DNA of 64,000 nt from positions 28,483 to 92,482 of the IMG/VR virus record IMGVR_UViG_3300042887_002430; one strand, 5' to 3'. The notes beneath the pieces were generated by a model. The model was given only the letters and a program-made list of their open reading frames with translations. It was not told the origin of the DNA and made no database searches. Both the position numbers and the translations under genes were made by a program. This DNA comes from a virus. Shown here one piece after another: positions 3,452 to 56,732 of the stretch (positions are counted from its first letter, which is position 1; each line of letters starts with the position of its first letter).

Positions 3452-3910
3452 CTATGCAAAATGGGGGAAATGGTCATTTATATAATCAATATATTTAAAT
3501 CCTTTTTCGACCACAAAATCGGTAAAATCAAACGTACCATGTCTAATATCATCTGCATTTTTTATAAATTCAGATTGTTTTAACATAGCCAATACAGGAT
3601 ATGATTCCATAAAATCAATATGGTACTTAGTACCTCGATGTGCTTCTAACCAAAATATTAAATCGTAATTAACAATGGATTTAATATTCTTATCCAAAAT
3701 TGTCTCTAACTGTTTCTTATTTTTAAATTTTACAATATATGTACCATAATCAGGGGAATTAATCATATATCCTTGGTCAATGGTAAATTCTAATGACTTA
3801 TCCGGCATAACTGCATAGTGTATTTTATTCTTATCATATTTTATAAAATCCAACATATCTTGTAGCATATCATTGTCCATCAAATTGGTCACAGGATTAT
3901 TAAAGTTCAT
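3452..3910 (-). CDS. hypothetical protein
   Basis: 152-aa ORF. Confidence 0.7.
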   Translation of the reverse strand: MNFNNPVTNLMDNDMLQDMLDFIKYDKNKIHYAVMPDKSLEFTIDQGYMINSPDYGTYIVKFKNKKQLETILDKNIKSIVNYDLIFWLEAHRGTKYHIDFMESYPVLAMLKQSEFIKNADDIRHGTFDFTDFVVEKGFKYIDYINDHFPHFA

Positions 3911-3965
3911 AATATTGTTAGTCCATAAGTATTTTTAATTAAAATATTATTATACCTATATTATC

Positions 3966-4178
3966 CTAATTGTCAACAATTATTTTTATATCTTCATCAT
4001 CAGATATTATATTACAACCAATCGGTAAATGAATACCATGAAAATACCATTCCTCTTTTATCTTATATAAGTGCAAAGCATCATTACCATGTAACGTAAA
4101 TTCAGATAATACGGCATCTGGATAATGGTTACTATTGACAAATAGTAAGAATTCATCAGTATCACCAGTAAATATCAT
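3966..4178 (-). CDS. hypothetical protein
   Basis: 70-aa ORF with ATGA overlap to the upstream gene. Confidence 0.6.
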   Translation of the reverse strand: MIFTGDTDEFLLFVNSNHYPDAVLSEFTLHGNDALHLYKIKEEWYFHGIHLPIGCNIISDDEDIKIIVDN

Positions 4179-4561
4179 ATCATTTTAAAGGCTCTAACGT
4201 AAAATTGCTTTTTCTTATCCCTAGAATTTTGGTAATACATCATACCTTTATAATAAAATGATATGGTTAACCCATAATCGGGGTTAGTATCAGTAACAGT
4301 CCAATATTCTTCTTCAAGATGCATATCATATCCATCAATCATATCATCCTTAATAATGGCATAATGTTGGAGAATATATTTCATAAAATCTGCATCAGGA
4401 ACAAACCATTCATTATAATCATCAATAATTAAAAATGATTCAAACATTGAAATATCCGAATAGGCTAACTTTTTTTCATATACCTTTGGTGATAATATTA
4501 ATCGTTTACCATCTGGAACTGTAGAAATATGTAAGCCACCTTCTAATATCTCTCCAATCAT
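4175..4561 (-). CDS. stand-alone Lcl/DUF1566-like (C-type lectin fold) protein
   Basis: LSPK...WFVP...YWT...YVRAF pattern, matching the Lcl tips at 54540 and 56729. Confidence 0.55.
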   Translation of the reverse strand: MIGEILEGGLHISTVPDGKRLILSPKVYEKKLAYSDISMFESFLIIDDYNEWFVPDADFMKYILQHYAIIKDDMIDGYDMHLEEEYWTVTDTNPDYGLTISFYYKGMMYYQNSRDKKKQFYVRAFKMI

Positions 4562-6345
4562 ATATTATAATCATCATACTTCAATATCATCGGAGGTATA
4601 CCTAACTCTTCAAATACAGAATTATACACCTGATTAAAAATATCTAAATCATCAGGATGGAACATAACAGAATCATGTATAGTGATTGCCGGATACTTCT
4701 TAACCTTCATAAATCGTCTAAAAATTCTATTAACAAACAATTCTGATTCTACTTTTTGTAATAATTTAGGCAAATGTGGAACAAAGTCTTGTTTATTTAA
4801 ATATGATACTAACCCTACCATTGTTGGAAATTCTGTAGCTAATTTTGTTTTTAAGTCTTTGAATTGTATATCATTACTGAAGAATGTTTTAAAAACACAA
4901 CCTTTAGCTCCATCTCTATCTTTTTTAATGATAGATGCTATTTCTTCATACAACATACCAGCTTTAGATAATCCAATAAATTTATCTAAATCTTGTTTAT
5001 TCTCATCAGAATGATTTTTAGCATATTTTATAGCTTCCATAACATTAGCGAATGGTAACAAAATCTTATCATCATCTTCATGCTTTAACCATTCAACACC
5101 GTACATCATTTCAGAAATCTGTTTAGGATATTCAATAATCATGGAAAAAATAGCCATTTGAGAATTCTTAGCATCAGCACTAATATATTTTACACCATCA
5201 ATATTAATGAATTGTCTAACCCATGATTTGATATTGGTGAAAATACTATGGAATCGTCCACCAAATTTATCACAAACGTTAAAATAGGTATTACCTTGTT
5301 GGATAAATTCTACGGTATTAATGAATTCAGCAATCTTTATTTCGTCAGCATCCTTTAATTTTTTCTTTAATCCTTTATCATCACCAAATGATAAATTATA
5401 ATAAGCATAAGGATTTGAATTATAAGAAGAAAGCATTTCAGCAGTGTTCATTCTTTTGAATAATTCAATAGCATCATCAATCATTGGTTTATATTCAGCA
5501 CTATTCATCTTACGTTTGTTTCTGATTCTAATCTTATCAGCAGCAAATCTATGTTTTAAACGCCAATCTTGAACATTAAAAATATAATATTGTTTAACAT
5601 CTATAGTAGATGAATCAGTAGTGAATAAATGATTAGCTAATTTATAGCTTCTAGCCTTTTTACTATCTTCATAATGATACCATTTATCATCACATAGCAA
5701 TAATCCAGCATTAATATAGGCTAATCTATATGATTCAAAAGTATAACCTACCAATTGTTCAATATAATTACTTCTTAACTGTACGAAACTTTTAAAATGA
5801 TTAGAGAAGAATTCGTTATCAGTAATATATACTTTTCTAGTTCTTTTAGTTTTTTGAAACAAATATGTAAATGCTACTAAACCTATGAAAGCCTTAGCAA
5901 TTTCTAAATTATATTCAAAATTTTCATCATATTTTTCTTTATAATCCATCATAGCCTTATGAATCATATCATCTGTCAATAGGATAGGAATATATAAAGG
6001 TACTCTTTTATCCTCATCAGACCCTTCTAAAGATTCATATCTAATCTGTGAAGCACATTTCTTTTTTATAAATTTATAAGGTATGACATATTTCTTAGCA
6101 TTAAATTTTTTAAACTGATGTTTCATAGCCCCTACCATAGATTCAGGGCTTCTTTTTTGATAAGGTTCAAAAATTGTTAAATCATCCATAAATCTAAAGT
6201 ATGAAAGACTGTCAAAGAATGTTTGTGTTACAGGGTCATAATATCTAGCATTCTTAATATCATGAAAGCATACAGTCTTGGTAACAGTAGAGAAAACACA
6301 TCTAAACCGTGAATAATCATAGATTTCATTAGCAATAATATTCAT
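4558..6345 (-). CDS. winged-helix-like plus family A polymerase-like palm protein (candidate replication initiator or primase)
   Basis: GGRFHS, motif A ISADAKNSQ, motif B-like RDGAK, LQKVES and motif C TIHDSV; wing-like WYHYEDSKKARSYKL. Confidence 0.6.
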   Translation of the reverse strand: MNIIANEIYDYSRFRCVFSTVTKTVCFHDIKNARYYDPVTQTFFDSLSYFRFMDDLTIFEPYQKRSPESMVGAMKHQFKKFNAKKYVIPYKFIKKKCASQIRYESLEGSDEDKRVPLYIPILLTDDMIHKAMMDYKEKYDENFEYNLEIAKAFIGLVAFTYLFQKTKRTRKVYITDNEFFSNHFKSFVQLRSNYIEQLVGYTFESYRLAYINAGLLLCDDKWYHYEDSKKARSYKLANHLFTTDSSTIDVKQYYIFNVQDWRLKHRFAADKIRIRNKRKMNSAEYKPMIDDAIELFKRMNTAEMLSSYNSNPYAYYNLSFGDDKGLKKKLKDADEIKIAEFINTVEFIQQGNTYFNVCDKFGGRFHSIFTNIKSWVRQFINIDGVKYISADAKNSQMAIFSMIIEYPKQISEMMYGVEWLKHEDDDKILLPFANVMEAIKYAKNHSDENKQDLDKFIGLSKAGMLYEEIASIIKKDRDGAKGCVFKTFFSNDIQFKDLKTKLATEFPTMVGLVSYLNKQDFVPHLPKLLQKVESELFVNRIFRRFMKVKKYPAITIHDSVMFHPDDLDIFNQVYNSVFEELGIPPMILKYDDYNI

Positions 6346-6374
6346 AAAGGAAATATACCATAGAAAAGGTCAAA

Positions 6375-6416
6375 TATTTATAAGCATAATTATACAGAAT
6401 ATTAAAATATTGTCAA
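6375..6416 (-). promoter_or_regulatory. tandem sigma70 and T4-type late promoters of the PolA-like gene
   Basis: TTGACA-N16-TATAAT (6416-6389) and TATAAATA (6382-6375) on the minus strand. Confidence 0.7.
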
Positions 6417-6419
6417 CTA

Positions 6420-6900
6420 TTAAATTGTTAACAGGTAAAAAAAAAAAAAGTCTTGTAAGTCTTTAGGATAGAAAGGATTAAAGATGATAAAGTATTGAAA
6501 TAATTAAGAATAATTAAAGAAATAGGATAGTCTTTAGGATATTCATAATTAGGATAGTCTTTAGGATATTCATAATTAGGATAGTCTTTAGGATATTCAT
6601 AGAATACAATAATTAAGATATGAAGATATGATTTCATAATTACATATATAAAAGATGATTCATAGAATTATAATTTACAATGTAGAAAATCATTATAATG
6701 ATAATAATAATAGTTAATTAAAGAAGATAGTAAAATATCATAATAACAGACGATATGATAAAGAAGAATCAAAGGATTCTCCGCAAGCCCCGTATAATAA
6801 GGCATGCTGTGAAACGGCATTTCGGGAGCATATGCCAATTTTTACATAAAAAATTAAAAATTGTTGCAATTATGTTAAAATATATGATAGGATATACCGA
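6420..6900. other. candidate replication origin region
   Basis: About 500 bp with no credible gene, purine-skewed, with an A13 tract, iterons and a GC-rich hairpin block, at a divergent strand switch. Confidence 0.5.
6524..6601. repeat. 27-bp tandem direct repeats (iteron-like), about 3 copies
   Basis: AGGATAGTCTTTAGGATATTCATAATT at 6524, 6551 and 6578 (last copy 24 nt); partial copy near 6459. Confidence 0.9.
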
Positions 6901-6962
6901 TGATTTTTAGGACTAAATATCATGCAAAAACAAAAATTCAAAACCCTTTAATGAGTATTACT

Positions 6963-9713
6963 ATGACAAAACCTATTGATGTGATTAAAAGAGATGGAAC
7001 CTTAGAACTGTTGGATATTAATAAAATCCATACAGTGTTATCATGGGCATGTGAAGGTTTATCCAATGTTTCAGTATCAGACATTGAGATGAATTCAAAA
7101 ATTCAATTTTATAATAAAATCAAATCGTCCGATATTCATAACACCATGATTAAGGCGGCGGCAGATTTGATTGATGAAGAGTATCCTAATTATCAATATG
7201 TCGCCTCCAGACTGTTGTTATTCTCCTTACGTAAGCAAGTATTAGGACAATACGAGCCTATTCATGTAAAGGACCTATATTTAAGGAATGTTGAACTAGG
7301 ACTATATGAAGATATAACAAATCAATATTCAGATGAAGAATGGGCGGAATTTGATAATATTGTTGACCATGAACGAGATTTTTTAATTGCTTATGCAGGT
7401 ATGAAGCAATTAGAGGGTAAGTATCTTGTACAGGATAGAGTAACTAAAAAAATCTTTGAAACGCCACAGTATTCATTTATCATGATTGCTGCTAATGTGT
7501 TTATTAATTATCCTAAAGATACCAGAATGTCATATGTAAAAAAATTATATGACAACCTTTCAAAATTCAATATTAGTTTACCTACCCCTATTATGGCAGG
7601 TGTACGTACACCATCTAAACAATATTCATCATGTGTATTATTAGAATGTTCTGATTCTTTAGATAGTATCACTGCTACTACTGGGGCTATCATTAAATAT
7701 ATTTCTCAGAAAGCTGGTATTGGTTTAGGCGCAGGTTCTATCCGAGCATTAGGTTCATCTGTCGATAATGGTAGAGCAGAACACACTGGAAACATTCCAT
7801 TCTTTAAATTATTCGAAGCTGCAGTAAAATCGTGCTCTCAAGGTTCCTTGAGGGCAGGTTCAGCAACCTTACATACAGTAATTTGGCACTTAGAAATTGA
7901 AGACATTTTAGTGTTAAAAAATAATAAAGGTACTACTGAAAATCGGGTTAGAAAAATTGATTACAGTATTCAATATAATGGATTCATCTTGACCCGTTTA
8001 TTGAGAGGTGAAAAAATTACATTATTCTCACCGCATGATGTTCCAGATTTATATGATGCATTTTTCGATGACCAAGATAAATTTGCCGAACTATATGTCA
8101 AATATGAAAATAATAAACACATTCGTAAAAAACGTATTGATGCTAATGAATTGATTACTACATTCTTATTAGAACAATTCGAAACCGGTAGACTATATAA
8201 TATGTTTACTGACCATGCAAACACCCATAGTTCATTCTTGGAAGAAGTAGCACCTATAAAAATGTCTAATCTTTGCCAAGAGATTACATTACCTACTAAA
8301 CCGTTTGTATCGTTAGACGATACTAACGGTCAAATAGCATTATGTATCCTAGCAGCTATCAATCTTGGTAATGTTAAACAATTATCAGATATGGAAGAAT
8401 GGGCTGATATTTGTGTTAGAACCCTAGATGAACTAATTGATATTCAAGACTATCCCTTAGAAGCTGCTAGAATTTCTACTGTTAATAGACGGTCTTTAGG
8501 GGTAGGCGTTATCAATTATGCTTATTACCTTGCTAAAAATTCAGCAAAATATGATGAATCTGGTTTCGATTTAACCAATAAAACCTTCGAAGCATACCAA
8601 TACTATCTATTGAACGCATCAGTTAATCTTGCAAAAGAAAAAGGTAAATGTAATTGGTTCTACCAAACAAAATATTCTAAAGGCATTCTTCCTATTGATA
8701 CCTATAAATCTAATATTGATGAATTGGTAGGAAAAGATTTACAAATGGATTGGGAATGGTTAAGAAAAGAGATTCTTACACATGGTCTACGAAACAGTAC
8801 ATTATCATCTTTGATGCCTAGCGAATGTCAATTATATTCTAATAAATTAAATCTAGCCGATGGTAGACGATTAAATTTCCATGAATTATTAGATGATGTT
8901 GGGGTAGATTGGGAAAGTATCGAAACGTCTGGAATCCCACAACGATATTCATTCTTGAAACCTATTGTTATTAATACTCAACATGGTCCTAAAGAAGCAT
9001 TTGAATATTACTATAATGGCTTTATTGATGTTATTGAATTAGAATTCGATGATGGTGAAACATATGGTTTTACACCTAATCATAAATTATTGGTTCTGCA
9101 ACAAAATGTATCATTAATCAATGATATAGAATATACCAGACATTGGGAAAAGGTGGAAAATCTAACGGATGGTCATTTGATTATTTTCAAATCTGACGAC
9201 CAACATGAATATGGTGTTAGAACTATTCGTAAAATTACTCATTCTAAAAATCATACATGGGATATCTCAGTATTAGATGGTGAAGAATATATTTTACCAA
9301 ATGGTATCATTTCTCATAACACATCTTCACAAATCAGTAATGCTACTAATGGTATTGAACCTGTATTATCTACTGTTACCACAAAAGGTTCTAAAAATAG
9401 TACAGCTAAACAAGTTGTACCAGAAGTAGGAAAATTGAAAAACAAGTATGATTATGCATGGAATATGCGGACTAATGATGGATATATTAAGAATGTAGGC
9501 ATCATGCAAAAATATATTGACCAAGCAATATCTGCTAACAAGTATTACAATCCTGAACACTGGCCAGATGGCAAGATTCCTATGGATATCCTCATTAACG
9601 ACTTTTTGAATTCTTATAAGTATGGTCATAAAACTGCTTATTATTCAAACACTTACGATGGTAGAGGAGAATCGGAGGATGAAGGATGTGAAGGCGGTGC
9701 ATGTAAAATATAA
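6963..9713 (+). CDS. nrdA: ribonucleotide reductase class Ia alpha subunit with intein
   Basis: ATP-cone VIKRDG, PTPIMAG, SSCVL, SNLCQEI, MPSE/TSSQISNATNGIEP and C-terminal CEGGACKI; start placed at MTKPIDV. Confidence 0.97.
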   Translation: MTKPIDVIKRDGTLELLDINKIHTVLSWACEGLSNVSVSDIEMNSKIQFYNKIKSSDIHNTMIKAAADLIDEEYPNYQYVASRLLLFSLRKQVLGQYEPIHVKDLYLRNVELGLYEDITNQYSDEEWAEFDNIVDHERDFLIAYAGMKQLEGKYLVQDRVTKKIFETPQYSFIMIAANVFINYPKDTRMSYVKKLYDNLSKFNISLPTPIMAGVRTPSKQYSSCVLLECSDSLDSITATTGAIIKYISQKAGIGLGAGSIRALGSSVDNGRAEHTGNIPFFKLFEAAVKSCSQGSLRAGSATLHTVIWHLEIEDILVLKNNKGTTENRVRKIDYSIQYNGFILTRLLRGEKITLFSPHDVPDLYDAFFDDQDKFAELYVKYENNKHIRKKRIDANELITTFLLEQFETGRLYNMFTDHANTHSSFLEEVAPIKMSNLCQEITLPTKPFVSLDDTNGQIALCILAAINLGNVKQLSDMEEWADICVRTLDELIDIQDYPLEAARISTVNRRSLGVGVINYAYYLAKNSAKYDESGFDLTNKTFEAYQYYLLNASVNLAKEKGKCNWFYQTKYSKGILPIDTYKSNIDELVGKDLQMDWEWLRKEILTHGLRNSTLSSLMPSECQLYSNKLNLADGRRLNFHELLDDVGVDWESIETSGIPQRYSFLKPIVINTQHGPKEAFEYYYNGFIDVIELEFDDGETYGFTPNHKLLVLQQNVSLINDIEYTRHWEKVENLTDGHLIIFKSDDQHEYGVRTIRKITHSKNHTWDISVLDGEEYILPNGIISHNTSSQISNATNGIEPVLSTVTTKGSKNSTAKQVVPEVGKLKNKYDYAWNMRTNDGYIKNVGIMQKYIDQAISANKYYNPEHWPDGKIPMDILINDFLNSYKYGHKTAYYSNTYDGRGESEDEGCEGGACKI
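8826..9320 (+). mobile_element. mini-intein (165 aa) in NrdA
   Basis: Starts with Cys after MPSE, has block B TPNH, ends ISHN followed by Thr; no LAGLIDADG motif. Confidence 0.92.
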
Positions 9714-11776: not shown

Positions 11777-12742
11777 ATGAAAAAAATTATAGAAAAATAT
11801 ATACCTTTACCATCCTTTCCTAATGCTAAAGGTTGGTATAGTTTAAAATGTAATGTATGCCACGATTATAAAGTTAGAGCAGGATTTAATTTTACTGATG
11901 ATAATGTGTCATATCATTGTTTTAATTGTAATTTTAAAGCATTTTATTTTGTTAATTCACGGGTTAATGATGATTTCAAAAAAGTATTAAATTCGTATCA
12001 TGTTCCAGAAGATGAGTTGTTGAAACTATCATTTGTTGCCTTAACCGCAGAACGTCCAACATATAAAAAAGTAGTAAAAAGTGATAACCCATTGGTAGAA
12101 ATAGATGTTCCTAAATGTTTTTATAAATTAATATCTGATGGTAGTGACAAACAGTCTAATATTGCTATAGAATATTTAAAAAATCGTGGAATAATAAATA
12201 ACTATAATTTTTATCTCTCAAGAGGTAATACCACACAGGATGAAAAATTGTGGGGTAACCGTTTGATAATCCCTTATTATAGGGAAGATAAATTAATCTT
12301 TTTTCAAGGTCGGACATTAAACAATGCAAGTAGAAGATATGTTAATTCAACAGTTGATAATGATGGTATTATTTTATACGGGTATCAAAACTTTCATACC
12401 GTATCTAATGACCTTCTTTTCATTGTAGAGGGTTTTTTTGATGCCTATCATTTGAATGGTGTTGCCATTGTAGGGAATAGTTTAACCGATAAAAAAATTA
12501 AAGTTATAAACGAAAGTAATAAAAGAAAAATATATGTCCCTGATAGATTCGGGAATGGTAAAGAACCTGCAATAAAAGCTATTGAGGCAGGATGGGAAGT
12601 ATCTATTCCTGATTGTGGTAATTGTAAAGATTTAAACGAAGCCATCATTAAGTATGGTCTACTATATGTAAAAAAATCATTAATGGATAATTGTAAAAAA
12701 GGTTTTGCAGCTACCATAATGGTTAATGCTATGTGCAAATAA
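11777..12742 (+). CDS. DNA primase, T4 gp61-like
   Basis: Zn ribbon CNVC...YHCFNC, YLKNRG, RLIIPY and Toprim VEGFFDA. Confidence 0.88.
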   Translation: MKKIIEKYIPLPSFPNAKGWYSLKCNVCHDYKVRAGFNFTDDNVSYHCFNCNFKAFYFVNSRVNDDFKKVLNSYHVPEDELLKLSFVALTAERPTYKKVVKSDNPLVEIDVPKCFYKLISDGSDKQSNIAIEYLKNRGIINNYNFYLSRGNTTQDEKLWGNRLIIPYYREDKLIFFQGRTLNNASRRYVNSTVDNDGIILYGYQNFHTVSNDLLFIVEGFFDAYHLNGVAIVGNSLTDKKIKVINESNKRKIYVPDRFGNGKEPAIKAIEAGWEVSIPDCGNCKDLNEAIIKYGLLYVKKSLMDNCKKGFAATIMVNAMCK

Positions 12743-13345: not shown

Positions 13346-13918
13346 TTGGAGGTTAATATGTATAGAAAATTGAAAATGTATTTAAATAAAATTTCCGATG
13401 TCAAACCTATTGATATGGATGATGGTACTGAAAAATTAGCCTATTTTTCCAAATATGATGGGAGTTATATTACCTTAACAGGGTTGGAGAATTCGGTTAG
13501 ATATTTAATGAAACGTGGAATCACAAAAGATTTGGCGCATGGTGTTGGCTATTCTCCAAGAAAGAAAAAATGGTACGGATGGTCCCATAGGGCAATTTAT
13601 GGATTTAAAATTGGAAGTACCGTTACACAAGATGATTGTGCCTATTTTCCAACTAATAAACAAGACTACATAGATTCTTACATTGAATTTTGGACGGATG
13701 TTGATAATCATAAAACAGTTTCTGTTGAAGATATAACAGAAGAAGGATTTAATATTATTTTTAATTATAATGATACCGTTCCAAATGAATCACTTAAAAA
13801 TAAAATTTCTTCAGTATATCAAGAATTCCCAAAACAATGGGGACGTGGCGAATGGACTGCTAAAACCATGGATGATGCTAAACAAATGGCTATAGATTTT
13901 TGCGAAGGTGTTTCGTAA
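13346..13918 (+). CDS. phage hypothetical protein
   Basis: 190-aa ORF containing WYGWSHRAIYGF; start probably the ATG after GGAGG. Confidence 0.75.
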   Translation: MEVNMYRKLKMYLNKISDVKPIDMDDGTEKLAYFSKYDGSYITLTGLENSVRYLMKRGITKDLAHGVGYSPRKKKWYGWSHRAIYGFKIGSTVTQDDCAYFPTNKQDYIDSYIEFWTDVDNHKTVSVEDITEEGFNIIFNYNDTVPNESLKNKISSVYQEFPKQWGRGEWTAKTMDDAKQMAIDFCEGVS

Positions 13919-26726: not shown

Positions 26727-29700
26727 ATGACATATATTAGTGCATTTATGCCAAGGGATGAAAAAGGATTTATTACTGAAGATGTGGTATATGTATATGA
26801 ATGCATTAATCATAAAAATATCTTAAAAAAGTATCCGGCAATCTTTGAATATTATACAAAATCAGAACGTGGACAATATACCAGCATCTTTGGGGAAACA
26901 TTAACAAAGGTTGTCTATAGTTCTACTAGAGAATTTAGAATAGCCAAGAAAGAGGCACTAGAAAATGGGGATAAGTTATATGAATCTGATATTCCGCCAG
27001 AAACTAAAGTTCTTATGGAACATTATTATGGTAAACCTGCCCCAGATTTGAATGTATTATTCTATGATATCGAGGTTGATTATGTTTCCAGAAAGTTTAA
27101 TGATGCCGATATTGTTACTATTCGTGCCAAAGGCGATGATGCAACACATAATGAAGAATTAAAATTAATTAGAGAATTAGAGCCGCAGAATAGGGAACTA
27201 TTTGAATTATATGATGATATGCTCAAACAATGGGTATCATATGAAGATTCAAGATTCTCCTATATGGGCGAAACAGGATTCTCATCACCATTAAATCCTT
27301 ATGCCCCTATTAATGCTATTTCTATTTTCAAACAATGGTTGGGAAAGTCTATTGTATTAGCAGTTCCTCCGAAAGGGTGGGACATATCTGAATTAGACCA
27401 ATCATTATCAGAATTAGCAGAAATTAGATTCTTTAAAACCGAAAAAGAATTATTGATGGAATTCCTTTCAGAATTGGAAGATGCTAATGTATTATCTGGC
27501 TATAACTCATCATACTTCGATGACCCATATGTTGCTAAAAGGGTAGAGATGGTATTAGGTGATTATTTCTTCAAGAAATTATCTATGAAAAAGGCAAATC
27601 TTGCCCAATTTAGAGAAGTGTTTGTTAAGGGTAAAAAACAATTACAAGTACAATTAGGTGGTCGTGCACAGTTAGATTATCTGGAATTATTCAAAAAGTT
27701 TGAACAGGCTGAAAGACCGTCCTATAAATTGGAAGCCATTTCTGCAGAAATTCTACCACATCTAACAAAATTAGAATATACCGGAACATTAGAACAATTG
27801 TATCATAATGATTTTAATCATTTTTTACGATATAACATTCGTGATACTGAAATCCTAAATGGGTTTGAGCAAAAATTGAATTATATTAAACTTGCTAATG
27901 ATATGATTCATTCTAATACCAGTAACTTTAATAATATTTTTGGTACGGTTAGGGTGGTTGATAATTCTATTATTAACTATTGTCACCATGTTAAAAATGT
28001 TATTGTTCCTGATAAATGGGATACTGCGGATGGTAGTATTCAAGGTGCATATGTATTATATCCTCAAAAAGGTATGCATAGATGGATATGTGCTATTGAT
28101 ATCAATAGTTTATATCCTTCTGCTATGAGAGCTATTAATATTAGTCCAGAAACCATGATTGGACAGTTTATTGATAATATGAAAGCCTGGAAATGTATCA
28201 GTGAACGAGTTGAAATCGATTTAGCATTCAAATATGAAAATGGTAGTATAGAGGTAAAAACCACGTCAGAATGGATAGAACTATTCTTAGCAAAGAAATG
28301 GGCTGTTAGTGGATATGGTACCGTATATGACCAGAATGAAGAGGGTGTTATCCCATCGTTATTATCATCATGGTATACATTACGTAAAGAATATCAAGCA
28401 TTGAAAAAGAAATTTGGTAACATGTGTGATGAATTAAAATTAGAACATGGTACATTGACGGCTAAACAGTTAAAAGAATATGATGCATTGGATGATAATC
28501 ATAAGAAAGAATATAAGTTAAAGAATGCTAAACTATCTAAAGAGAATAAAAAACAATATGATGAATATTATGAAGAATCTAAAAAGAATGACCGATTCCA
28601 ATATATCTATAAGATTTTGTTGAATTCTACTTATGGGTGTTTAAGTAATTATAATTTTAGATTCTTTAGATTAGAAGCTGGTGAATCGGTAACAGGTACA
28701 GGCAGAATGATTCTAAAACATCAATGTAGAGAAGTTAATAAAATGTTAGAAAATAATTATGATATTGAGTTTCCTCTATACGAAAGTAAGAAAGTCATTG
28801 ATAAAATGATTAAGGTTTATAATAAAAAAATGGCAGTTATCCATGCTGAAAATAAACCAGAGGTAGCTGAAGATGCTAGTTTGCATCAATATATTGAAAC
28901 ACTTAACCAAGAATATTATCATCCATCATTATTAACACATGATATTGCCTTAGATGGACCAGTGTTTAAAGGAAAATTTACTTCTAAATCAGTTATTTAC
29001 GGTGATAGTGTTGCTGGTGATACTATAATTTATTTGTCTGATAGATGTGTATTCATTGAAGATTTAATGACTGATGATATTATCTATCGGGAGGGTAAAG
29101 AGTATTGCAATTTAAATAATGTTCAAGCATTGACCTATGATAAATTATCAGATACTACTACATTTAGAGATATCAAATACGTCATGAGACATAAATGTGA
29201 GAAACAAATGTATCGGGTATGGACATCTAATAACAGTTATATTGATGTTACCGAAGACCATAGTTTAATGCATTTTGTTAATGGTGTGGTATCAGAAGTT
29301 AAACCATTTGAAGATATTGGAAAATTAATTTGTGTCAACGGTACAGATACTGTTATTGATACCTTAATATTTGATAGTAAAGATACTGCTATGATACAAG
29401 TATTTGATATGCTTAATAACGGTCAATATGCCACCGTTACCAGCATTGGAGATATGTTTATGGTTAATTCTGCAAATATTAAATCTGAAAGTATTGGTAA
29501 GGATTTTAATACTAGTGATGTTTATAAAATTGAAAAAATATCTTACGATGGGTATGTTTATGATATTGAAGTAGATGATACACATGTGTTTTATGCTAAT
29601 AATATATTAGTACATAATACCGATAGTACCTATTTTGTGGTTCCGGCAAAGGATAAAGAAGAAGCTGTGGAAATGTCAGATTTTATTGCAGAACGGGTGA

Positions 29701-30431
29701 ATAAATCCTATCCTAAATTTATGAAACATGCATTTTTATGTCAACCAGTATTTGATAAAATGATTGCATGTGGTCGTGAAATTGTCGGCGATAATTCTAT
29801 CTTTGTTAATAAAAAACTTTATACAATTCATGTAGTTGATAATGAGGGAAAGGCGGAAGATAAGATTAAAACAATGGGGTTAGCTATTAAGAAAACTACC
29901 TTACCTAAACCTATTGCAACAAAATTAACATCATTTGTTAAACGTTTATTAATCGGTGAAGATTGGTCAACTATTTCCCATGATGTTGTTGATTATAAAA
30001 AAGAATTGAAGAATTTGGATAATTTATTAGAGATGGGTCTCCCGAAAGGTGTGAATGGATTAGAAGATTATTATAAGAAATATTTAGATGATTCTGGTAC
30101 TAATCTTCCGGGACACGTAGCAGCATCTATATTCTATAATATTAATTTAAAAGAATATGCAGATTATGATAATGCTCCGATATCATCAGGTAACAAAATT
30201 AAGGTATATTATCTTAAAAAACCGGAAGGACGATTTAAAGCTATAGCATTGCCTACTGATTTGGAAACTGTCCCAGAATGGTTTACTGAGAATTTTATTA
30301 ATCGGTTAGATGTTGAATTACAGATTTCAAAATTAGTAGATGACCCATTAGAGAGTATCCTTAATGCTATTGATTATAAGGTACCTACCCAACAGTTGTT
30401 AATGATGGAAGATGCTTTCGTCTGGGATTGA
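26727..30431 (+). CDS. family B DNA polymerase, T4 gp43-like, with intein
   Basis: YDIE, GYNS..FD, YNIRD, DINSLYPS, KILLNSTYG and YGD/TDS. Confidence 0.96.
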   Translation: MTYISAFMPRDEKGFITEDVVYVYECINHKNILKKYPAIFEYYTKSERGQYTSIFGETLTKVVYSSTREFRIAKKEALENGDKLYESDIPPETKVLMEHYYGKPAPDLNVLFYDIEVDYVSRKFNDADIVTIRAKGDDATHNEELKLIRELEPQNRELFELYDDMLKQWVSYEDSRFSYMGETGFSSPLNPYAPINAISIFKQWLGKSIVLAVPPKGWDISELDQSLSELAEIRFFKTEKELLMEFLSELEDANVLSGYNSSYFDDPYVAKRVEMVLGDYFFKKLSMKKANLAQFREVFVKGKKQLQVQLGGRAQLDYLELFKKFEQAERPSYKLEAISAEILPHLTKLEYTGTLEQLYHNDFNHFLRYNIRDTEILNGFEQKLNYIKLANDMIHSNTSNFNNIFGTVRVVDNSIINYCHHVKNVIVPDKWDTADGSIQGAYVLYPQKGMHRWICAIDINSLYPSAMRAINISPETMIGQFIDNMKAWKCISERVEIDLAFKYENGSIEVKTTSEWIELFLAKKWAVSGYGTVYDQNEEGVIPSLLSSWYTLRKEYQALKKKFGNMCDELKLEHGTLTAKQLKEYDALDDNHKKEYKLKNAKLSKENKKQYDEYYEESKKNDRFQYIYKILLNSTYGCLSNYNFRFFRLEAGESVTGTGRMILKHQCREVNKMLENNYDIEFPLYESKKVIDKMIKVYNKKMAVIHAENKPEVAEDASLHQYIETLNQEYYHPSLLTHDIALDGPVFKGKFTSKSVIYGDSVAGDTIIYLSDRCVFIEDLMTDDIIYREGKEYCNLNNVQALTYDKLSDTTTFRDIKYVMRHKCEKQMYRVWTSNNSYIDVTEDHSLMHFVNGVVSEVKPFEDIGKLICVNGTDTVIDTLIFDSKDTAMIQVFDMLNNGQYATVTSIGDMFMVNSANIKSESIGKDFNTSDVYKIEKISYDGYVYDIEVDDTHVFYANNILVHNTDSTYFVVPAKDKEEAVEMSDFIAERVNKSYPKFMKHAFLCQPVFDKMIACGREIVGDNSIFVNKKLYTIHVVDNEGKAEDKIKTMGLAIKKTTLPKPIATKLTSFVKRLLIGEDWSTISHDVVDYKKELKNLDNLLEMGLPKGVNGLEDYYKKYLDDSGTNLPGHVAASIFYNINLKEYADYDNAPISSGNKIKVYYLKKPEGRFKAIALPTDLETVPEWFTENFINRLDVELQISKLVDDPLESILNAIDYKVPTQQLLMMEDAFVWD
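29007..29618 (+). mobile_element. mini-intein (204 aa) splitting the YGD|TDS motif
   Basis: Starts SVAGDT, has block B VTEDHS, ends LVHN followed by Thr. Confidence 0.93.
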
Positions 30432-40956: not shown

Positions 40957-43900
40957 ATGGCAAACTTTGATTATCGTAAAGATTCATTAAAAGTAGATGA
41001 ATTACTACCTGAGAATTTACAGACAGAAATTATGGTTTCTGTTTTTAATAATGGGATTAATAGATTATTAACTTCTCCTGATACCGTTCGTTCTGCTGGT
41101 TCAATTGGGCAGAATTATAAAAAAGTGTATAAAAATAGAATAACAGAGGATGTTAATCATAAAGATTATATTCATCGTACTACATATCAATTACAACCAT
41201 TAGTATATTCTAAAATTGCCACAGAAGAGTTTATTACATCATATAAAGATATATTAACAAAATTACAATTCTTGTGTGGTGATGATATTGTAGACCGTCA
41301 AGATAAATGGGCTGATTGTGAACAATTTGATTTTGCACCACCCATTGATTTAGATAAATTTGTAAATTATCAAAATTACGTTTGGGTGGATAATACAGAA
41401 CCAGATTATATTACCATGAATAACTCTTTGACTAGAGCTAATTCTAGGGTTGCAGAATTATCAAAAAATTCGGCAACCGCAACGGTAATTCAACCATATT
41501 TAGATTCGGTAACAAATTTAACAAAACAAATATCAGATATAATGCATAAAACTATATGGGGCAATAATGTTATTGACCATAAGTACATGTGGATAGAATC
41601 TAATAAATGGGTACACAAATCTGATGCACCTGCGGGGTTTTTACCAGCAGAACGACCCATTATAGAATATTTTAGCAATATTGAAGTTAATGAATGGAAT
41701 TATACTAAACATAATTGGTTATACAGAAAAAACATTTTGTCACCATGGATACCATCTGATACCGGTCCAACCGATAGTGAACTATTAACTAGATATCCTA
41801 TTATTGATTGGAATCCTGCTGCTTCATCTATGACGATAGCCAACAATCTAACATCAGTTTTTGTAAAAAATTTAAAATTTACTATTAAAGAAGCTACCGA
41901 TTCCAGTAATAATAATTATTATACCGTAGTATCTAGTACAGTTGATACTACTAATGGTAATACCATTATCGTAGTTTCCGAAACTATTACGGCAATGGCA
42001 AAGCATAACATAGCACAGTCATATTCATATGTTGGTAATACCAATAATACTATGCCTGACGAAAATTTGGGAACTACTGGTGATTTCTATGGAATAATTG
42101 TACCTGTTGCTAAAACTAGTAAAGGGGATAATTGGTTAGGGTTGCATCAACATTGGGCTTGGGTATCACAAGAATTACAGACAGCAGTAAACCATCAAAT
42201 CCAAGATGCAGCACAATTTGAGCAAGTATTTGTAGTAGGAAATGAAGCATATGATACTCAAGCATATGATGCCGAATTAGGTTTTGATGGGAAAACCAGA
42301 TATACCTTCGACGTACCATACATTTATGATACCGATGATTTACAAGTATATATTAATGGTGTTAGACAATATGGTACATATAATGAAGTTATTGACGATG
42401 TAGATAGTAGATTCGATGATGACCCATTAGAATTCACACGATACGAATACCCTAATGTCCCAGTATTAGTATCATCATATAGCATTGATTTTACAATACC
42501 GTTAGCCAGACACGATACAATTCTTATAAAAGTTGGAGCACCATGTGAAAAAGATGTTAAAAAACATGGTATTACAGTAGGGTGTTATGATGAAACAAAT
42601 CCAAACACCCCAAAATTAAAATATAAAAATTTGGTTGAATATCGTTTACATGAACAAGTTAAAATAAATAAGAATCAATATTTGCATTTTGATTTGTATC
42701 ATCCAAATGAACAAACTGCTTATACCGCAAATCCTATATTTAAATATAAGGAAGATATTTCATTTAATTATGATAATCTCCTAATGGTTAGAACTAATAT
42801 AGTTGAAAGTAATGACCCCAATAAACCATATGATATTAATGCAATTTTCGAAAATTTGGCAGTAGATGATAATGGGTTATTATGCTATAAACAATATGAA
42901 AATAGTGTCGAGAATCTATATAGTATTTGGAGAAAATGTCCAGATAATTATGTACCCCAAAAAGTAGATATTTATAGAAATCCTGTTTTGGATACTACCA
43001 CACCATGTGACTGGGAACTTCCTGCTCCATTTATACATAATATCTATAATGAATGTAGGGTAGATGTTTTATATAAAGAATTAAAAAATCATTTTAATGA
43101 TATCCTTACATATCAAACATTATCTTCAGATTTTGCTAATGTAACTTACGTTGCTAAAATGTTAGAGAATTATGTATATTCTGGTGGATATATTAAAGTG
43201 TTCAACGGTAGATATGATTTATTAGTATCCTCTATTCATCAAAACATTGTTAACATAATAACATTAATAAATTATGCAAAACAACAATATTTTGACAATA
43301 TTGATAATTTAAAGACTACTATATTAAAAGATATATTAAGTAATGATAATTATGATTCTAATTATCACATATCGAATTTCGTAGAAAATACGTATCTAAA
43401 TAGAACCTTTTCTGATACTACTACTGTAAAAACAGTTGCCAATATTAAGTATGGTATTAAGAATTGGATTACTACATTGCCAATTCTTGGATTTATGGAA
43501 CCAGTAGAACCAAGACATATATACGATAGTAAATTAGGCATTAATAAAATATTACACCATGATGGGCATTATTCGGATATTTCACACGATACCTTAATTG
43601 ATGCTATTATCAGTAAATATAAAAAAAATAACCCAGCATATATTGAGGCTGATATCAATAGCCTAATTGATATTGTTAATAAAAATATCATCGAAACTGT
43701 ATTAATAGTAGAAAATAAACTATATGACCGTGCAAAATTAGAACAGATTAAATTCAATTTTGTAGATATTATTAATGGTGAGCAATCGTTATTTGATGAT
43801 AAATTAAATATTCTATTTTCTGAATATGCGAAATCATTAGACGATATGGCAATCACGAATGATTTTACTATCGGTGATGCTTTCACTTGGAATTATTCAG

Positions 43901-46900
43901 GGATAGAAACAGAACCAGCATTAACAATTTCACAAAACCCTACAAAATGGGGAGCACATTGGAAAGAGATATATAAACAACAATACAATACCTCTTATCC
44001 TCATTTAGAACCTTGGAAATTACAAGGATATACGGAAAAACCTACACATTGGGATAGTGTTTACTTAGATAGTGGTACATGGTCTCCACAAATGTGGACT
44101 AATATTAGAAATGGTATTATTGATTCTGGATTATCTGCTCCCCCATCTTCTCCACCTACATATACTATAATAAGTGTTAATGATACCGGGACTAAACATG
44201 GTTCATATGATGTTAATGAATTAATACCACCATATGTTAGTATTCCCGCATTATCACAGAATTCATTAATATTTGGTGATATGACTTCAGTAGAAGCCGT
44301 CAATATCATTTCAAAAGTTACTAATAATTATATTCGTCAACGATATGAAGAATCTATAAATTATAATTACGATAAATTTATGGTATTGTTCAAACTACAA
44401 CCATTAAAAATATTAAGATTAGCATTTGGTGATGAATATTATGATACTACCAAAAATGGAGGTTTGTTAATTAACAAAACTTCTAATGCGGTACCATCAC
44501 ATAAAGATATAATATTCCATGGTACATTAGTTAACAACGTATCATATTCTGCACATGGTATTAACCAATGGTATACTAATATCTTACGTTCAGAAAATAA
44601 TATTATTAGTATGGATGATTTTATAACTATGTGGACTGCATGGGAAAGTAAACTATCATACCAAACTAATTCTATCATAAATGACAAAACCTTGATGTTA
44701 GATAATGAATTTTTTAACATTTACCACCAAGATTACTCCGTACATGTAAAAAAATCACCATCTGTTATTGCCAAATGGTTGCATTCATTACTATTTTCTG
44801 TATATAGAAGTGGTACGTATGGATATAAAAATGGGGTTAAAATACCAACCGATGGGAACGATTGGTTATTTACTGTTGATATTCCAGTCACTGGTAATCA
44901 AGAATTGTATTACTACGGTACCAGAAATTATAAAATTAGAAGTGTGGATGTAGTGAATAATACTTTCTCACTAGATGTTTCTGAAGCCATTATGGGCAGC
45001 AATATTACCGAAACACAATTATTAGAAAATAATAAAAACATTTTATGGAACAATAATGAAACCGTATTTGTTGATTATGTTTCACCAACATTAAACAAAT
45101 CTTTCGATTATGCTATTGTAAAATATGATACCAATACATTTGGTCTTTCTAAGTATAATTCAAATACTAATACTACTGAAGTAATAGATTTGTACGATAC
45201 CATAAATTGTTATTATATCCCAGATAGTATTACTATAGGTAGTTTACGTATTGATAAAGATAATAATTTATATCAATACACCGCTAACGGTTGGGAAATA
45301 TTATCTAATAGTTCTAATGATTTTATAGTTTCCGCATTTACTGATATTAAATTATATAATAATGGGTTACCATTATTAATAGGTTACACCATTACGGGGA
45401 CTACTATATCTATCGATAAATCTATTACACTAAATGACTTTACTGTTGTTTTAGATTATACACATCCTGTACCAGTTTACACAATCCCAGTATTATTTAA
45501 TGATGGTGATTTGAAATATAATGCCTCTAATAAAATAATGCAATATAGAGCAATGGCCGGAGTTTGGGTATCATATTCAACTACAACCAATGATTTCATA
45601 TTACCAACTGATAGTAGTGATGTATATATCTACAATGATTCTAAATTATTATCATATGGATACACTATCACTGGTTCTAAAGTATCACTAGATTCTTCTG
45701 TTATTTTAAACAATTTGCATATTAAAATTGCAATTCCTAGCAATACTACAATACAACAAAGATTAGATGAATTTACAGTATTAGATAAATCAAATAATTC
45801 TGATATGTGGTATAATTTGGTATTGGATAAACAGAATGTTAAAAAGATAATTCTTAAAAATGATAAATTTATCGGAATTCAACCAATCATTGATTTTATA
45901 CAAGGATATTATGTATATGCTACTGATAACGGATTTGTGTTAACTGATGAATTAAATCCAAAAAATGATGTTGAATATCCAACCAGAATTAGAGGATGGA
46001 AACTAGAAATAGAAAAATTTATTCATACCTTATATTCTGGTGCTGATTTTACCACAATATTAGTGAATCCTTTTAGATATGAGTTTTGGGTAAACACTCC
46101 AGTGGGTGTAGTTTCTGACCTCCTCAGAGGCCCGTACAGAGATGTTAATCTATACCCTATAGTATATGATAGCCTTGGTAAATCTATCAAGAGTATGGAG
46201 AATCTGAAGCTATTTAGAACAGATAAAAGCTCTCATCTAACATATCCAGAAAACAGTGATAATTTCATCGGGGGCATACATATCTTCTTAGATTATTATG
46301 AACATGTCATCATGTTCAATGATTATACCATCAATTACAATATGATTTATGACCATTTTGTTGGTGTTAATAATGAAGATATTAAAATAAGTCTAAACAA
46401 ACATTACGAAACGAATGGTAGACCTAATATTGGTGGGGGATTCTTATCAAATAACAATATTATTGATAATATCGAAACCGATGCTATGAATTTCCAACAA
46501 CTATATGATATCTATGCTGATACTGAAGAAAATGAATATATTAATAATGTAAGAGCATTATTAGGATATGATAATTCGAAAGACTATGGTACTTTTAATG
46601 CTAAATCAAAATTCTTATTCTGGAAAGGGTTGATGCATCAAAAAGGAACATCTGATAGTGTTAATATGTTTGCTACACAAGGTCATTCTACCAATATCAA
46701 TATTGATGAGTATTGGGCATATCGTATTAGTGAATATGGTGATGCTAAAATAAAACGTGAACAATATGTGAACATTAAATCATCCGATTTTATCAATCAT
46801 AATATTTTGTATCAATTCGTTACTGATGGTTATATTAAAGATACCAAATTTATACAGATAGATAAAAATGATATTACCCGTTGGGATGATACTACCACAG

Positions 46901-54539: not shown

Positions 54540-56732
54540 TTAAGGAGTGAATTGTACCGCGCGGATAGCACGGGCTATATTACCAGAACCCCCCGTCAAA
54601 TCTATATTGCCGGTATAAGTTGCCCCGTCCGAGAAATTCAAACATTTGAAACCACCGGGAACCGAGTCCCAAGTAAATCCTATTGTTTGACTTGCAACTG
54701 CCGGAGTTTGGGACCAATATGCACTGGCTGATAATGGGGTGAATGGTGTGCCATATGTTGGTGGATATGGCGATTGTCGTAAAATGTCTAATTGTTCGAA
54801 TGTTGGTAACACCCAATCTTTCAAAACACTTCCATTATTTATGGATTTTATATATTGTATTCTATTTGCTAGTGGTAGACCGGATAAATATTTATTTACA
54901 ATAGCACTATCATACATGGTATAGTTGCCGGTACCGGCATATGGCCATTTAACATACAATTGGTCTTTATTCACATACAGATGATAACTTTTTCCATTAG
55001 TGGTAATATCTCCATAATAATATCCATATATTTTAGGGTCTAATGTAGTAGTTGTCGTAGTTGGGGCTGCTGTAGTTGTAGATGTGGTTGGAGCTGCTGT
55101 TGTCGTAGTCGTGGTAGGTTCTTCGGTAGTTGTTGTAGTTGGTTCCTCAGTTGTAGTGGTAGTTGGTTCTTCCGTTGTAGTCGAAGTAGTAGGTGCCACT
55201 GTAGTAGTCGAAGTAGTGGGTGTTGCTGTAGTCGTTGACGTAGTAGGTGCTGCTGTAGTAGTTGTACTAGTTGGTGCCGCAGTTGTTGTAGTAGGAGCTT
55301 CGGTTGTCGTGGTAGTAGGAGCTTCAGTAGTCGTAGTTGGAGCTGCTGTAGTAGTTGTACTAGTTGGTGCCGCAGTTGTTGTAGTAGGAGCTTCGGTTGT
55401 CGTGGTAGTAGGAGCTTCGGTTGTCGTGGTTTGACCAGCCACTGTTGTTGTGGTAGTTGGAGCTTCGGTTGTCGTGGTAGTTGGAGCTTCGGTTGTTGTG
55501 GTAGTAGGAGCTTCGGTTGTCGTGGTTTGACCAGCCACTGTTGTTGTGGTAGTTGGAGCTTCGGTTGTCGTGGTAGTTGGAGCTTCGGTTGTTGTGGTAG
55601 TTGGAGCTGCAGTTGTCGTAGTCGCAGGAGCTGCAGTTGTCGTAGTCGCAGGAGCTGCGGTTGTCGTAGTCGCAGGAGCTGCGGTTGTCGTAGTCGCAGG
55701 AGCTGCGGTAGTTGTTGAAGTTGGAGTAATAAACCCAGGGTCGCTAAAACCTTTAAGTCCAAAAATACTAAAAAATACTTGCTCATTTGCGGTTACTGTG
55801 TTTCTGTAAACCGTTATTGATGATGGAGAGGTTTTCTCAAAAAATATATCATCTATGATGTCGGCAGAAGCATTATTTTTATTAACATTATGCATTCCAC
55901 CAGATAATGTACAATAATATTTTCCGGTAAACGGCGGCTCCCAAGATACGATAATACTACTACTACCAGTAGTAAAAATTATATTCCCAGTAACATACAT
56001 CAACCCATCATTACCAGCATCGATAGAATAAACACATTTATTACTATCTACTAATGTAGTGGGACTATCTATATTATAAAATGATGATGTAATCTGTAGA
56101 TTTGTTTTGGTATCTATATAATTTTTGGTTGCACAATAACTAGAATCACTAAAATCTGATGGTAAGTATACCGTAGTTAATACAGTAGATGCACCAATCA
56201 ATGGGACATATGAACCTTCTTTAGTAGTGTCAGTAGAATTATTACATTTACATGCAGCATTATCAACATATTGTCTATTTGCTAATAATTGTCCATCACT
56301 ATCTGATGTCAATTCATTCAATTGTAATATTCCGTACATTGGTTTGGTATTACCAATTAACGGAATAAATCCCTCCATCGAAGACCCAAAAGTATCGGTG
56401 GTTAATATATTATTAAGAGTTTCTGTTGAAGAATTACTAATTATTGGCCAATCTTTGGGTGTATGTGATGTACACAATTTTAAAACTTTATTATATTTGT
56501 CAAACCATAATTGGCCTTCCAATATCTTGTCACCAAATTGTGGATAATAATCATTACAAAAATTTTCTAAAATGTGTAGAAAATTTTCATTTAAATATTG
56601 AGTCCATTTAGGGGTATTCCTACCAAATAATATTAATGTGGTAGCTTCTTCATTAATGGTGTTTTCTGGTATAACAATATCGTCTCTACCATAATTAAAT
56701 TTAATAGTATATGTAGGGCTTCTTGTTATCAT
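54540..56732 (-). CDS. fibre/adhesin with Thr-rich stalk and Lcl/DUF1566 tip
   Basis: Shared N-domain; about 230 aa of TTTT(E/A)AP repeats; DWVLPTFEQL, YWS and IRAV. Confidence 0.75.
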   Translation of the reverse strand: MITRSPTYTIKFNYGRDDIVIPENTINEEATTLILFGRNTPKWTQYLNENFLHILENFCNDYYPQFGDKILEGQLWFDKYNKVLKLCTSHTPKDWPIISNSSTETLNNILTTDTFGSSMEGFIPLIGNTKPMYGILQLNELTSDSDGQLLANRQYVDNAACKCNNSTDTTKEGSYVPLIGASTVLTTVYLPSDFSDSSYCATKNYIDTKTNLQITSSFYNIDSPTTLVDSNKCVYSIDAGNDGLMYVTGNIIFTTGSSSIIVSWEPPFTGKYYCTLSGGMHNVNKNNASADIIDDIFFEKTSPSSITVYRNTVTANEQVFFSIFGLKGFSDPGFITPTSTTTAAPATTTTAAPATTTTAAPATTTTAAPATTTTAAPTTTTTEAPTTTTTEAPTTTTTVAGQTTTTEAPTTTTTEAPTTTTTEAPTTTTTVAGQTTTTEAPTTTTTEAPTTTTAAPTSTTTTAAPTTTTEAPTTTTTEAPTTTTAAPTSTTTTAAPTTSTTTATPTTSTTTVAPTTSTTTEEPTTTTTEEPTTTTTEEPTTTTTTAAPTTSTTTAAPTTTTTTLDPKIYGYYYGDITTNGKSYHLYVNKDQLYVKWPYAGTGNYTMYDSAIVNKYLSGLPLANRIQYIKSINNGSVLKDWVLPTFEQLDILRQSPYPPTYGTPFTPLSASAYWSQTPAVASQTIGFTWDSVPGGFKCLNFSDGATYTGNIDLTGGSGNIARAIRAVQFTP

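Follow-up and report, generated by a model that had tools for sequence, protein, structure and literature searches.

What does a small family-A polymerase do in a T4-like phage that already encodes a replicative polymerase and a primase? This question is raised by a 595-amino-acid (aa) open reading frame (ORF) on the minus strand of a 64,000-nucleotide stretch of DNA, hereafter the window, which covers positions 28,483 to 92,482 of the 92,482-bp IMG/VR virus record IMGVR_UViG_3300042887_002430 (CheckV completeness about 26%). We propose with moderate confidence that this polymerase-like gene encodes an active minimal family-A polymerase joined to a winged helix, which would serve as a primase-polymerase of the Transposon-Virus polymerase (TV-Pol) type and as an auxiliary starter of replication. 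The original prediction, made from the sequence of the window, had described the protein as a possible origin-specific initiator-primase working at iterons in the adjacent intergenic gap. The proposed role agrees with the prediction for TV-Pols (PMC2579912), with the primase CcPol-MP (PMC7581432), and with the genomic islands in which the family resides, whereas the link to an iteron origin is not supported.

The minus-strand ORF carries the family-A motifs D359xxGGR364FHS, D391 within ISADAKNSQ, R477xxxK481, and H557D558 within TIHDSV, as first described. In an alignment of 76 diverse homologues with a mean column identity of 17%, R364, D391, Y466, K481, Q530, E533, H557, and D558 are invariant, and D359, H366, T370, N394, S395, Q396, G463, and S559 are nearly so; the position of R477 is occupied by Arg in 61 and by Lys in 11 of the 76 sequences. 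An AlphaFold2 model built from this family alignment (predicted local distance difference test (pLDDT) 90.4, predicted template modelling score 0.83) has the right-hand polymerase fold, and the top 50 Foldseek matches are all family-A DNA polymerases (E-values around 2e-4). Comparison of the model with 48,161 representative chains by VIA-align placed residues ~280-595 on family-A polymerases, with a Z-score of 13.2 over 252 residues for the Klenow fragment, and with 12.9, 12.5, and 12.3 in the first pass for Pol theta, the apicoplast polymerase, and T7 DNA polymerase, respectively. A second structural comparison yielded Z-scores of 14.0 for Pol theta and 13.9 for T7 DNA polymerase, and the fit to these two enzymes and Klenow has a root-mean-square deviation of 3.8-4.4 over 250-257 residues. 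None of the Pfam, PHROG, and PDB sequence searches detected an exonuclease domain, and the structural alignments to family-A polymerases begin only at about residue 280, in agreement with the original prediction. Sequence searches with the query against Pfam, PHROGs, PDB, NCBIfam, and PADLOC returned nothing or chance-level matches only, and neither the query nor any of the 76 family members matches the DNA polymerase A model PF00476. With Pol I Klenow, T7 gp5, and Pol theta (Z 13-14), the protein shares the palm-fingers-thumb fold, the motif-2 Arg, the motif A Asp, the RxxxK motif with a Phe at K+4, and the HD of motif C. It differs from them by the lack of a 3'-5' exonuclease, a core of only ~335 residues, HDS instead of HDE in motif C, and Phe instead of Tyr at K+8. 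As modelled, the ORF is thus a family-A right-hand polymerase with all catalytic motifs and no nuclease domain, and its core is near the smallest family-A polymerase architecture.

The winged-helix-like middle noted earlier is also found in the model. Residues ~119-260 match the winged helices of ORC/Cdc6 proteins, the plasmid initiator 4pta, TFE-alpha, Fur, CRP, and LexA, with modest Z-scores of 5.5-6.9, and the loop at residues 169-180 of this domain is disordered. A winged-helix-like signature, Y..Y...L...GIIE.D..Y..G.KS.GYR, is kept family-wide and reads YRLAYINAGLLLCDDKWYHYEDSKKARSYKL in this protein. The family-wide consensus begins near residue 120, and homologues outside the clade of this phage match from residue ~100 onwards. 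The model therefore places a sequence-conserved, putatively DNA-binding winged-helix domain N-terminal to the polymerase core.

The family to which this protein belongs is large and is found in bacteria as well as in phages. An exhaustive phmmer search (E<=1e-3) recovered 1138 cluster representatives (50% identity clusters), most of them 400-520 aa long and matching query residues ~340-590. No curated model of this family is found in Pfam, PHROG, NCBIfam, or PADLOC, and the database labels of its members are inconsistent, ranging from 'hypothetical' to 'DNA polymerase palm domain' and 'RNA polymerase'. A scan of prokaryotes with one genome per species identified 123 loci, almost all on Bacteroidota chromosomes, and the neighbours of 80 loci were clustered and annotated with Pfam. 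A tyrosine integrase gene is present in 47 of these 80 Bacteroidota loci, usually directly upstream, and the islands have a recurrent order of tyrosine integrase, a small HTH_17 (excisionase-like) gene, and the polymerase gene. Among 301 sampled Bacteroidota genomes, 19 (about 6%) contain a copy, and some copies are interrupted by stops. This arrangement marks the polymerase gene as a core component of small integrative islands in Bacteroidota. The cargo behind the polymerase gene is variable and looks defence-related, including the type I restriction-modification protein HsdM, a 1100-aa SNF2-PLD protein, RadC, and AAA_24 with DUF3871. Among the Bacteroidota islands (loci L020-L099), a further layout places DUF3871, AAA_24, and the polymerase gene in this order, with the integrase on the opposite strand. 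A search with one homologue (P0050) found a single Hymenobacter plasmid, and a search with another (P0030) found no phage match. The family is also present on viral contigs and in unannotated huge phages; for the latter, tblastn against GenBank phages gave weak matches only, to LR7565xx and LR745206, and megablast of the region gave no match.

These features resemble the TV-Pol family, which was predicted in 2008 to comprise primase-polymerases (Iyer, Abhiman and Aravind 2008, PMC2579912), and the idea of such an activity in minimal family-A enzymes is thus not new. TV-Pols share with the protein studied here a length of 400-600 aa, a minimal family-A core, an extra N-terminal domain, and the constant absence of a nuclease domain; they likewise occur in viruses and in integrase-linked elements, including those of Bacteroidetes, and are predicted to have primase-polymerase activity (PMC2579912). 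The bi-helical thumb, the Arg hairpin, the palm with two Asp residues, the RxxxK fingers, and the lack of a nuclease fusion are all found here as described in that study. A gene neighbourhood as in TV-Pols, where a lambda-type integrase, a resolvase, a transposase, or a D5-like helicase is encoded nearby, is found for the family, but not for this phage copy, as Pfam and PHROG scans of the window revealed no integrase, transposase, or excisionase near the polymerase-like gene. Its neighbours are nrdA and small genes without annotation, and the integrase/helicase neighbourhood of TV-Pols is lacking. Further differences are that the N-terminal domain of TV-Pols is all-helical (PMC2579912), whereas a winged helix preceded by a mixed alpha/beta extension is predicted here, and that, unlike the TV-Pol replicases of small elements, the gene is a stably inherited part of a T4-like jumbo phage which has its own PolB and DnaG-type primase. 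Overall, the family fits those TV-Pols that possess an N-terminal domain and are encoded next to an integrase, resolvase, or transposase, and by analogy a family of this type probably starts DNA copying.

De novo priming has been shown for a single TV-Pol-type enzyme, CcPol-MP of SCCmec, which uses deoxynucleoside triphosphates (dNTPs) (PMC7581432, PMC10061031). CcPol is a truncated true Pol I relative that retains E710 and F762 (Bebel et al. 2020, PMC7581432; PMC10061031), and it requires the small OB-fold partner MP and the helicase Cch2 (PMC7581432, PMC10061031). The protein described here shares with CcPol-MP, whose gene is carried by a mobile element, and with the PolA-SSB primases of Bacillota elements a family-A domain without working proofreading, as well as a small gene behind the polymerase gene. 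It differs from CcPol-MP by a Gln at the position of E710, the HDS of motif C, the fused winged helix, and the lack of an adjacent helicase.

Whether such an enzyme would make DNA or RNA was addressed by checking the motif register against the E. coli Pol I and T7 RNA polymerase (RNAP) sequences from annotated records. The spacing between the Arg hairpin and the motif A Asp is 27 residues, compared to 37 in Pol I and 112 in T7 RNAP, and the motif following the hairpin Arg, GRFHSxxTN, resembles GRLSSxxPN of E. coli Pol I. In motif B, the K+4 residue is a Phe, as is F762 of Pol I, while K+8 is Phe489 (a Phe in 64 of the 76 members) instead of Y766 in Pol I and Y639 in T7 RNAP. At D+5 of motif A, an essentially invariant Gln (Q396) stands, in an ungapped register, at the position of E710 in Pol I and G542 in T7 RNAP. 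Motif C reads HDS as in T7 RNAP, compared to HDE in Pol I. Thus, of the T7-like features, HDS alone agrees, and neither the Gly at D+5 of the T7-like motif A, DGSCxGxQH, nor the Tyr at K+8 is found. This mixture of DNA and RNA polymerase features leans towards the DNA polymerases, and the motif register suggests the use of dNTPs or a relaxed choice of sugar.

The gene is embedded in a genome with a GC content of ~29% in the window and with T4-like gene content as identified by Pfam, including an intein-bearing nrdA, nrdB, a thymidylate synthase gene, and a gp46/47-like pair. As had been stated, the phage encodes a replicative PolB and a separate primase, the latter being of the DnaG type (Table 1). 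No tRNAs were found in the window. Near-identical DNA was found in lake and other freshwater metagenomes from at least 12 studies. Metatranscriptome contigs overlap the polymerase-like gene, but as these may reflect DNA carry-over, they were not counted as proof of expression. Three related contigs (L003-L005, one of 133 kb) encode a 652-aa homologue with ~30% best-segment identity to P0007, a relative of the query, and have the same gene order as the window: nrdB-nrdA, a divergent gap, the polymerase gene, and homologues of the 152-aa protein and of a 320-aa protein. Helicases are encoded near the polymerase gene in these contigs. According to synteny clusters and alignment, the 152-aa gene lies downstream of the polymerase gene in both phage clades. 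In a closer relative (L102, 68% identical), the operon of the polymerase gene and the 130-aa, 70-aa, and 144-aa genes is kept. The 128-aa gene of the window is restricted to this close clade (its homologue in L102 is 70% identical) and absent from L003-L005; the AlphaFold2 model of its product (pLDDT 52) is unreliable and thus unusable for fold assignment. As the gene order is retained across a protein identity of ~30%, the polymerase-like gene is an old resident of this phage lineage and not a fresh insertion.

Both the sigma-70 promoter and the late promoter proposed for this gene lie upstream of it. Perfect TTGACA-N15-18-TATAAT promoters occur four times in the window, compared to 0.52 expected, and head the polymerase-like gene, the 152-aa gene, nrdB, and PolB, so that the polymerase-like gene shares its class of perfect putative early promoter with nrdB and PolB. 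The late-promoter octamer TATAAATA is depleted 3.6-fold, with nine copies in the window compared to 32.6 expected, and its copies are located just upstream of gene starts. This depletion suggests that the remaining copies are probably real signals, which are avoided elsewhere. Together, these motifs point to a T4-like scheme of early and late promoters. The polymerase-like gene is both early and late by its signals, and it has long resided in a region for nucleotide metabolism and replication.

Table 1. Positions of the polymerase-like gene, its predicted domains, and other features in the window
Feature	Position	Strand	Details
Polymerase-like gene	4558..6345	-	595 aa; ATG start; stop codon 4558-4560; predicted winged helix plus minimal family-A polymerase, TV-Pol type
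Polymerase core, aa 261-595	4561..5565	-	Predicted: short helical thumb, Arg beta-hairpin, palm, fingers
Key codons	R364 5254-5256; D391 5173-5175; K481 4903-4905; H557 and D558 4672-4677	-	
Winged-helix (wHTH) domain, aa ~116-260	5566..6000	-	Predicted; VIA-align Z 5.5-6.9
N-terminal extension, aa 1-115	6001..6345	-	Predicted mixed beta/alpha; phage clade only
128-aa gene	4175..4561	-	Start overlaps the polymerase-gene stop (ATGA)
70-aa gene	3966..4178	-	Same operon as the polymerase-like gene; kept in the close clade
152-aa gene	3452..3910	-	No assigned function; own perfect sigma-70 promoter at 3949-3976
Intergenic gap	6346-6899		554 bp; GC 23.5%; 60.8% purine on + strand
Late-promoter octamer, T4 type	6375..6382	-	TATAAATA; 30 nt upstream of ATG
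Perfect sigma-70-type early promoter	6389..6416	-	TTGACA-16-TATAAT; 12/12 match; for the polymerase-like gene
A13 tract (T13 on gene strand)	6437..6449	+	Just upstream of the -35 element
Isolated extra half-site	6460..6470	+	TCTTTAGGATA
27-bp tandem array	6523..6603		Three units; TRF: 2.9 copies, 100% identity, 6523-6601; 0 expected by chance
nrdA with intein	6900..9713	+	Divergent, conserved neighbour of the polymerase-like gene (Pfam)
DnaG-type primase gene (phrog_47)	11777-12742		
PolB gene, intein-bearing	26727-30431		1234 aa

Several other explanations have to be weighed against a primase-polymerase. The protein might be a compact single-subunit RNAP similar to those of T7 or to N4 RNAPII, which would transcribe a subset of phage genes or make RNA primers. 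With the T7-like enzymes, including the heterodimeric N4 RNAPII, it shares the superfamily, HDS in motif C (HDSF in T7 RNAP), and weak profile matches at motifs B and C; the best PDB sequence matches of the family profile are N4 RNAPII (E 0.08) and mitochondrial RNAP (E ~1.5), both non-significant. Two members are named 'DNA-directed RNA polymerase' in UniRef, one of the 76 reaches PF00940 at an E-value of 0.006, below the cut-off (the query has no match to this model), and yeast mitochondrial RNAP aligns over 357 residues with a Z-score of 10.5. Yet these enzymes score lower than the family-A DNA polymerases (Z 13-14), with only 9.0 for T7 RNAP and 7.1 for N4 RNAPII in VIA-align. They are also much larger, and the protein studied here has the Pol I-like spacing from the hairpin Arg to motif A and lacks, in the ungapped register, equivalents of Tyr639 and Gly542. 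Furthermore, the genes of the window use sigma-70 and T4-late promoters, the polymerase-like gene included, there is no evidence for a dedicated promoter that this enzyme would recognise, and an RNAP would have no evident role in the integrase-excisionase islands that are the home of the family. We therefore consider an RNAP unlikely. An enzyme for repair, lesion bypass (similar to Pol theta or Pol nu), or gap filling, rather than for initiation, appears still less probable. It would agree with the lack of a proofreading domain, the position of the gene in a region with genes for nucleotide metabolism and recombination (the gp46/47-like pair), and Pol theta polymerase domains as the top structural match. 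However, all family-A DNA polymerases lie within ~1 Z unit, so that this top rank is uninformative, and the family-wide fusion to a winged helix together with the core position in islands points to the replication of elements. The gene could also be a remnant that a mobile element has left in the phage genome, a hitch-hiker of no use to the phage, as the family is typical of mobile islands, has a patchy distribution, and includes copies with stops. We regard this as the least probable alternative, since no mobility genes lie nearby in the window, the gene order is shared by phage clades whose proteins are ~30% identical, none of the catalytic residues varies, and the gene has early and late promoters of its own.

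The final alternative concerns the gap upstream of the gene, where the winged helix was proposed to bind 27-bp repeats as the iterons of an origin, with the enzyme making the origin primer. The gap is indeed non-coding and purine-skewed and contains an A13 tract and three 27-bp repeats. It is AT-rich (GC 19.6% over 6420-6740), and transcription diverges from it, with nrdA on the opposite strand. Each 27-bp unit contains the half-site TAGGATAKTC twice, with spacings of 12 and 15 bp, and the 10-bp core is nearly confined to the gap (6-7 copies), the only other exact copy in the 92-kb record lying at 5124 inside the polymerase-like gene; the array itself is unique in the record. An origin would also agree with the fusion of a putative DNA-binding winged helix to a polymerase, with the observation that the polymerase gene is often the first of its transcription unit and follows a long gap at a divergent junction, and with repeats upstream of the gene in four of eight other viral loci (L006, L008, L012, and L013). 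However, the repeats at these loci share no motif with those in the window, and the equivalent 269-bp gap of the closest syntenic clade (L003-L005) contains none. The expected synteny of homologues with repeat-rich gaps shows no enrichment overall: the 500-bp upstream region is repeat-rich at nine of 83 loci (11%), compared to 9% of 1726 control windows. A metagenome scan recovered only two further copies of the region, L101, in which the contig starts inside the repeats, and L102, which has 116 bp upstream. The former, a strain with an identical protein and a conserved A13 tract, has at least four repeat units instead of three, a difference that resembles replication slippage. In independent lake metagenomes, contigs break at the array, where the depth of a 57-nt unitig is also raised, as is typical of tandem repeats prone to slippage. 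The 27-bp period and the 12/15-bp spacing of half-sites would also be mismatched to the helical repeat. Finally, a skew switch had been expected at the gap, but the sign of the GC skew follows the coding strand in nearly all of the ~20 strand blocks of the record, and its cumulative minimum is found at another junction, near window position 22-24 kb. An array conserved together with its initiator gene among relatives, as expected for an iteron origin, is thus not observed; the repeats are a strain-variable tandem array in a promoter-bearing gap, and their reading as iterons or origin is not supported. We consider this explanation improbable, although the repeats in other viral loci and the long divergent gaps provide a weak residual hint at a linkage with repeats. 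The array could be bound by a protein, but no observation connects it with the polymerase-like protein.

The repeats in two of the other viral loci consist of a ~80-bp unit present three times (L013, 5870-6111) and a 25-mer present twice (L006, 5685-5793), both unrelated in sequence to the 27-mer of the window. A 69-aa ORF (6428-6637, minus strand) translates the 27-bp repeats into (YEYPKDYPN)x3, flanked by two hydrophobic stretches, and the gain or loss of repeats would leave it in frame. It was set aside as probably not a gene, as it has no ribosome-binding site and its sequence is low-complexity and repeat-encoded. A patch with 40% GC (6740-6840) is located in the otherwise ~20% GC leader of nrdA; within it, 6782->6763 resembles a terminator hairpin of the minus strand, and no gene on that strand lies upstream. 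This patch may encode a small RNA or act as a regulatory leader; a search of 6200-7100 against Rfam gave only a chance-level 6A RNA match (E 0.92), and RNA folding of 6735-6900 is not convincing (z -1.8 on the plus and -2.7 on the minus strand).

Elsewhere in the window, the intein PF14890 occupies residues 699-807 of NrdA (937 aa) and 780-964 of the PolB replicase (1234 aa). A gene similar to Tad6, an inhibitor of type I Thoeris (PF25188, E 8.7e-37), is located at 13346-13918 between an RNase T-like exonuclease gene and the thymidylate synthase gene. The GC content peaks at 45% (compared to ~30%) with a GC skew of +0.34 at 55001-56000, inside a 730-aa ORF (54540-56732, minus strand), which is probably due to a repeat-encoded low-complexity stalk. 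A single ORF of 2771 aa spans 40957-49272.

To return to the primase-polymerase that we favour, the winged helix would direct the enzyme to a specific site or structure in the DNA, where the polymerase core may make a short primer de novo or extend one. This primer would then be taken over by the PolB replisome of the phage, allowing an auxiliary start or restart of DNA synthesis alongside the DnaG-type primase. We infer both the priming activity and the DNA-site specificity. The stable place of the gene beside nrdAB, in a phage with PolB and a DnaG-type primase, suggests such an auxiliary route. Several observations weigh against this proposal. The primase activity rests on analogy and context, and it is not obvious why a phage equipped with PolB and a DnaG-type primase would need a further primer-maker. 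Neither a helicase nor a confirmed single-stranded-DNA-binding partner is encoded beside the gene, and its operon contains no helicase. The named founders of the TV-Pols are Sputnik V13, Ma-LMM01, SCCmec CcPol, and the Brucella elements. The family profile has no match in the record of Ma-LMM01, the single founder searched, in which PF00476 detects an ordinary, apparently split PolA; as no direct sequence link to the founding TV-Pols was obtained, membership rests on architecture and context. The HDS of motif C, as in single-subunit RNAPs, makes an RNA product possible, and because hhalign of the family profile with E. coli Pol I and T7 RNAP aligns motif C only, the assignment of the D+5 steric gate derives from the ungapped register and not from superposition. 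In a more far-reaching form of the proposal, which we consider about as improbable as the iteron origin, the protein would be a self-contained, site-specific DNA primase guided by its winged helix, starting replication at an origin without transcripts of the host RNA polymerase and using the TAGGATA array or another site in the gap as its landing pad. If true, replication would start in a way that has not been described for phages of the T4 type.

In practical terms, annotation gains a name and a domain map for a protein that recurs as 'hypothetical protein'. The catalytic motifs stand between those of DNA and RNA polymerases, with HDS in motif C, a Gln at the steric-gate position, and a Phe at the Y639/Y766 position. 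With such intermediate motifs, an assay of this enzyme would bear on the origin of sugar selection and of de novo priming in the superfamily. If the proposed function is correct, it would give a first function to a family that comprises more than 1000 clusters and is common to phages and the integrative islands of Bacteroidota.

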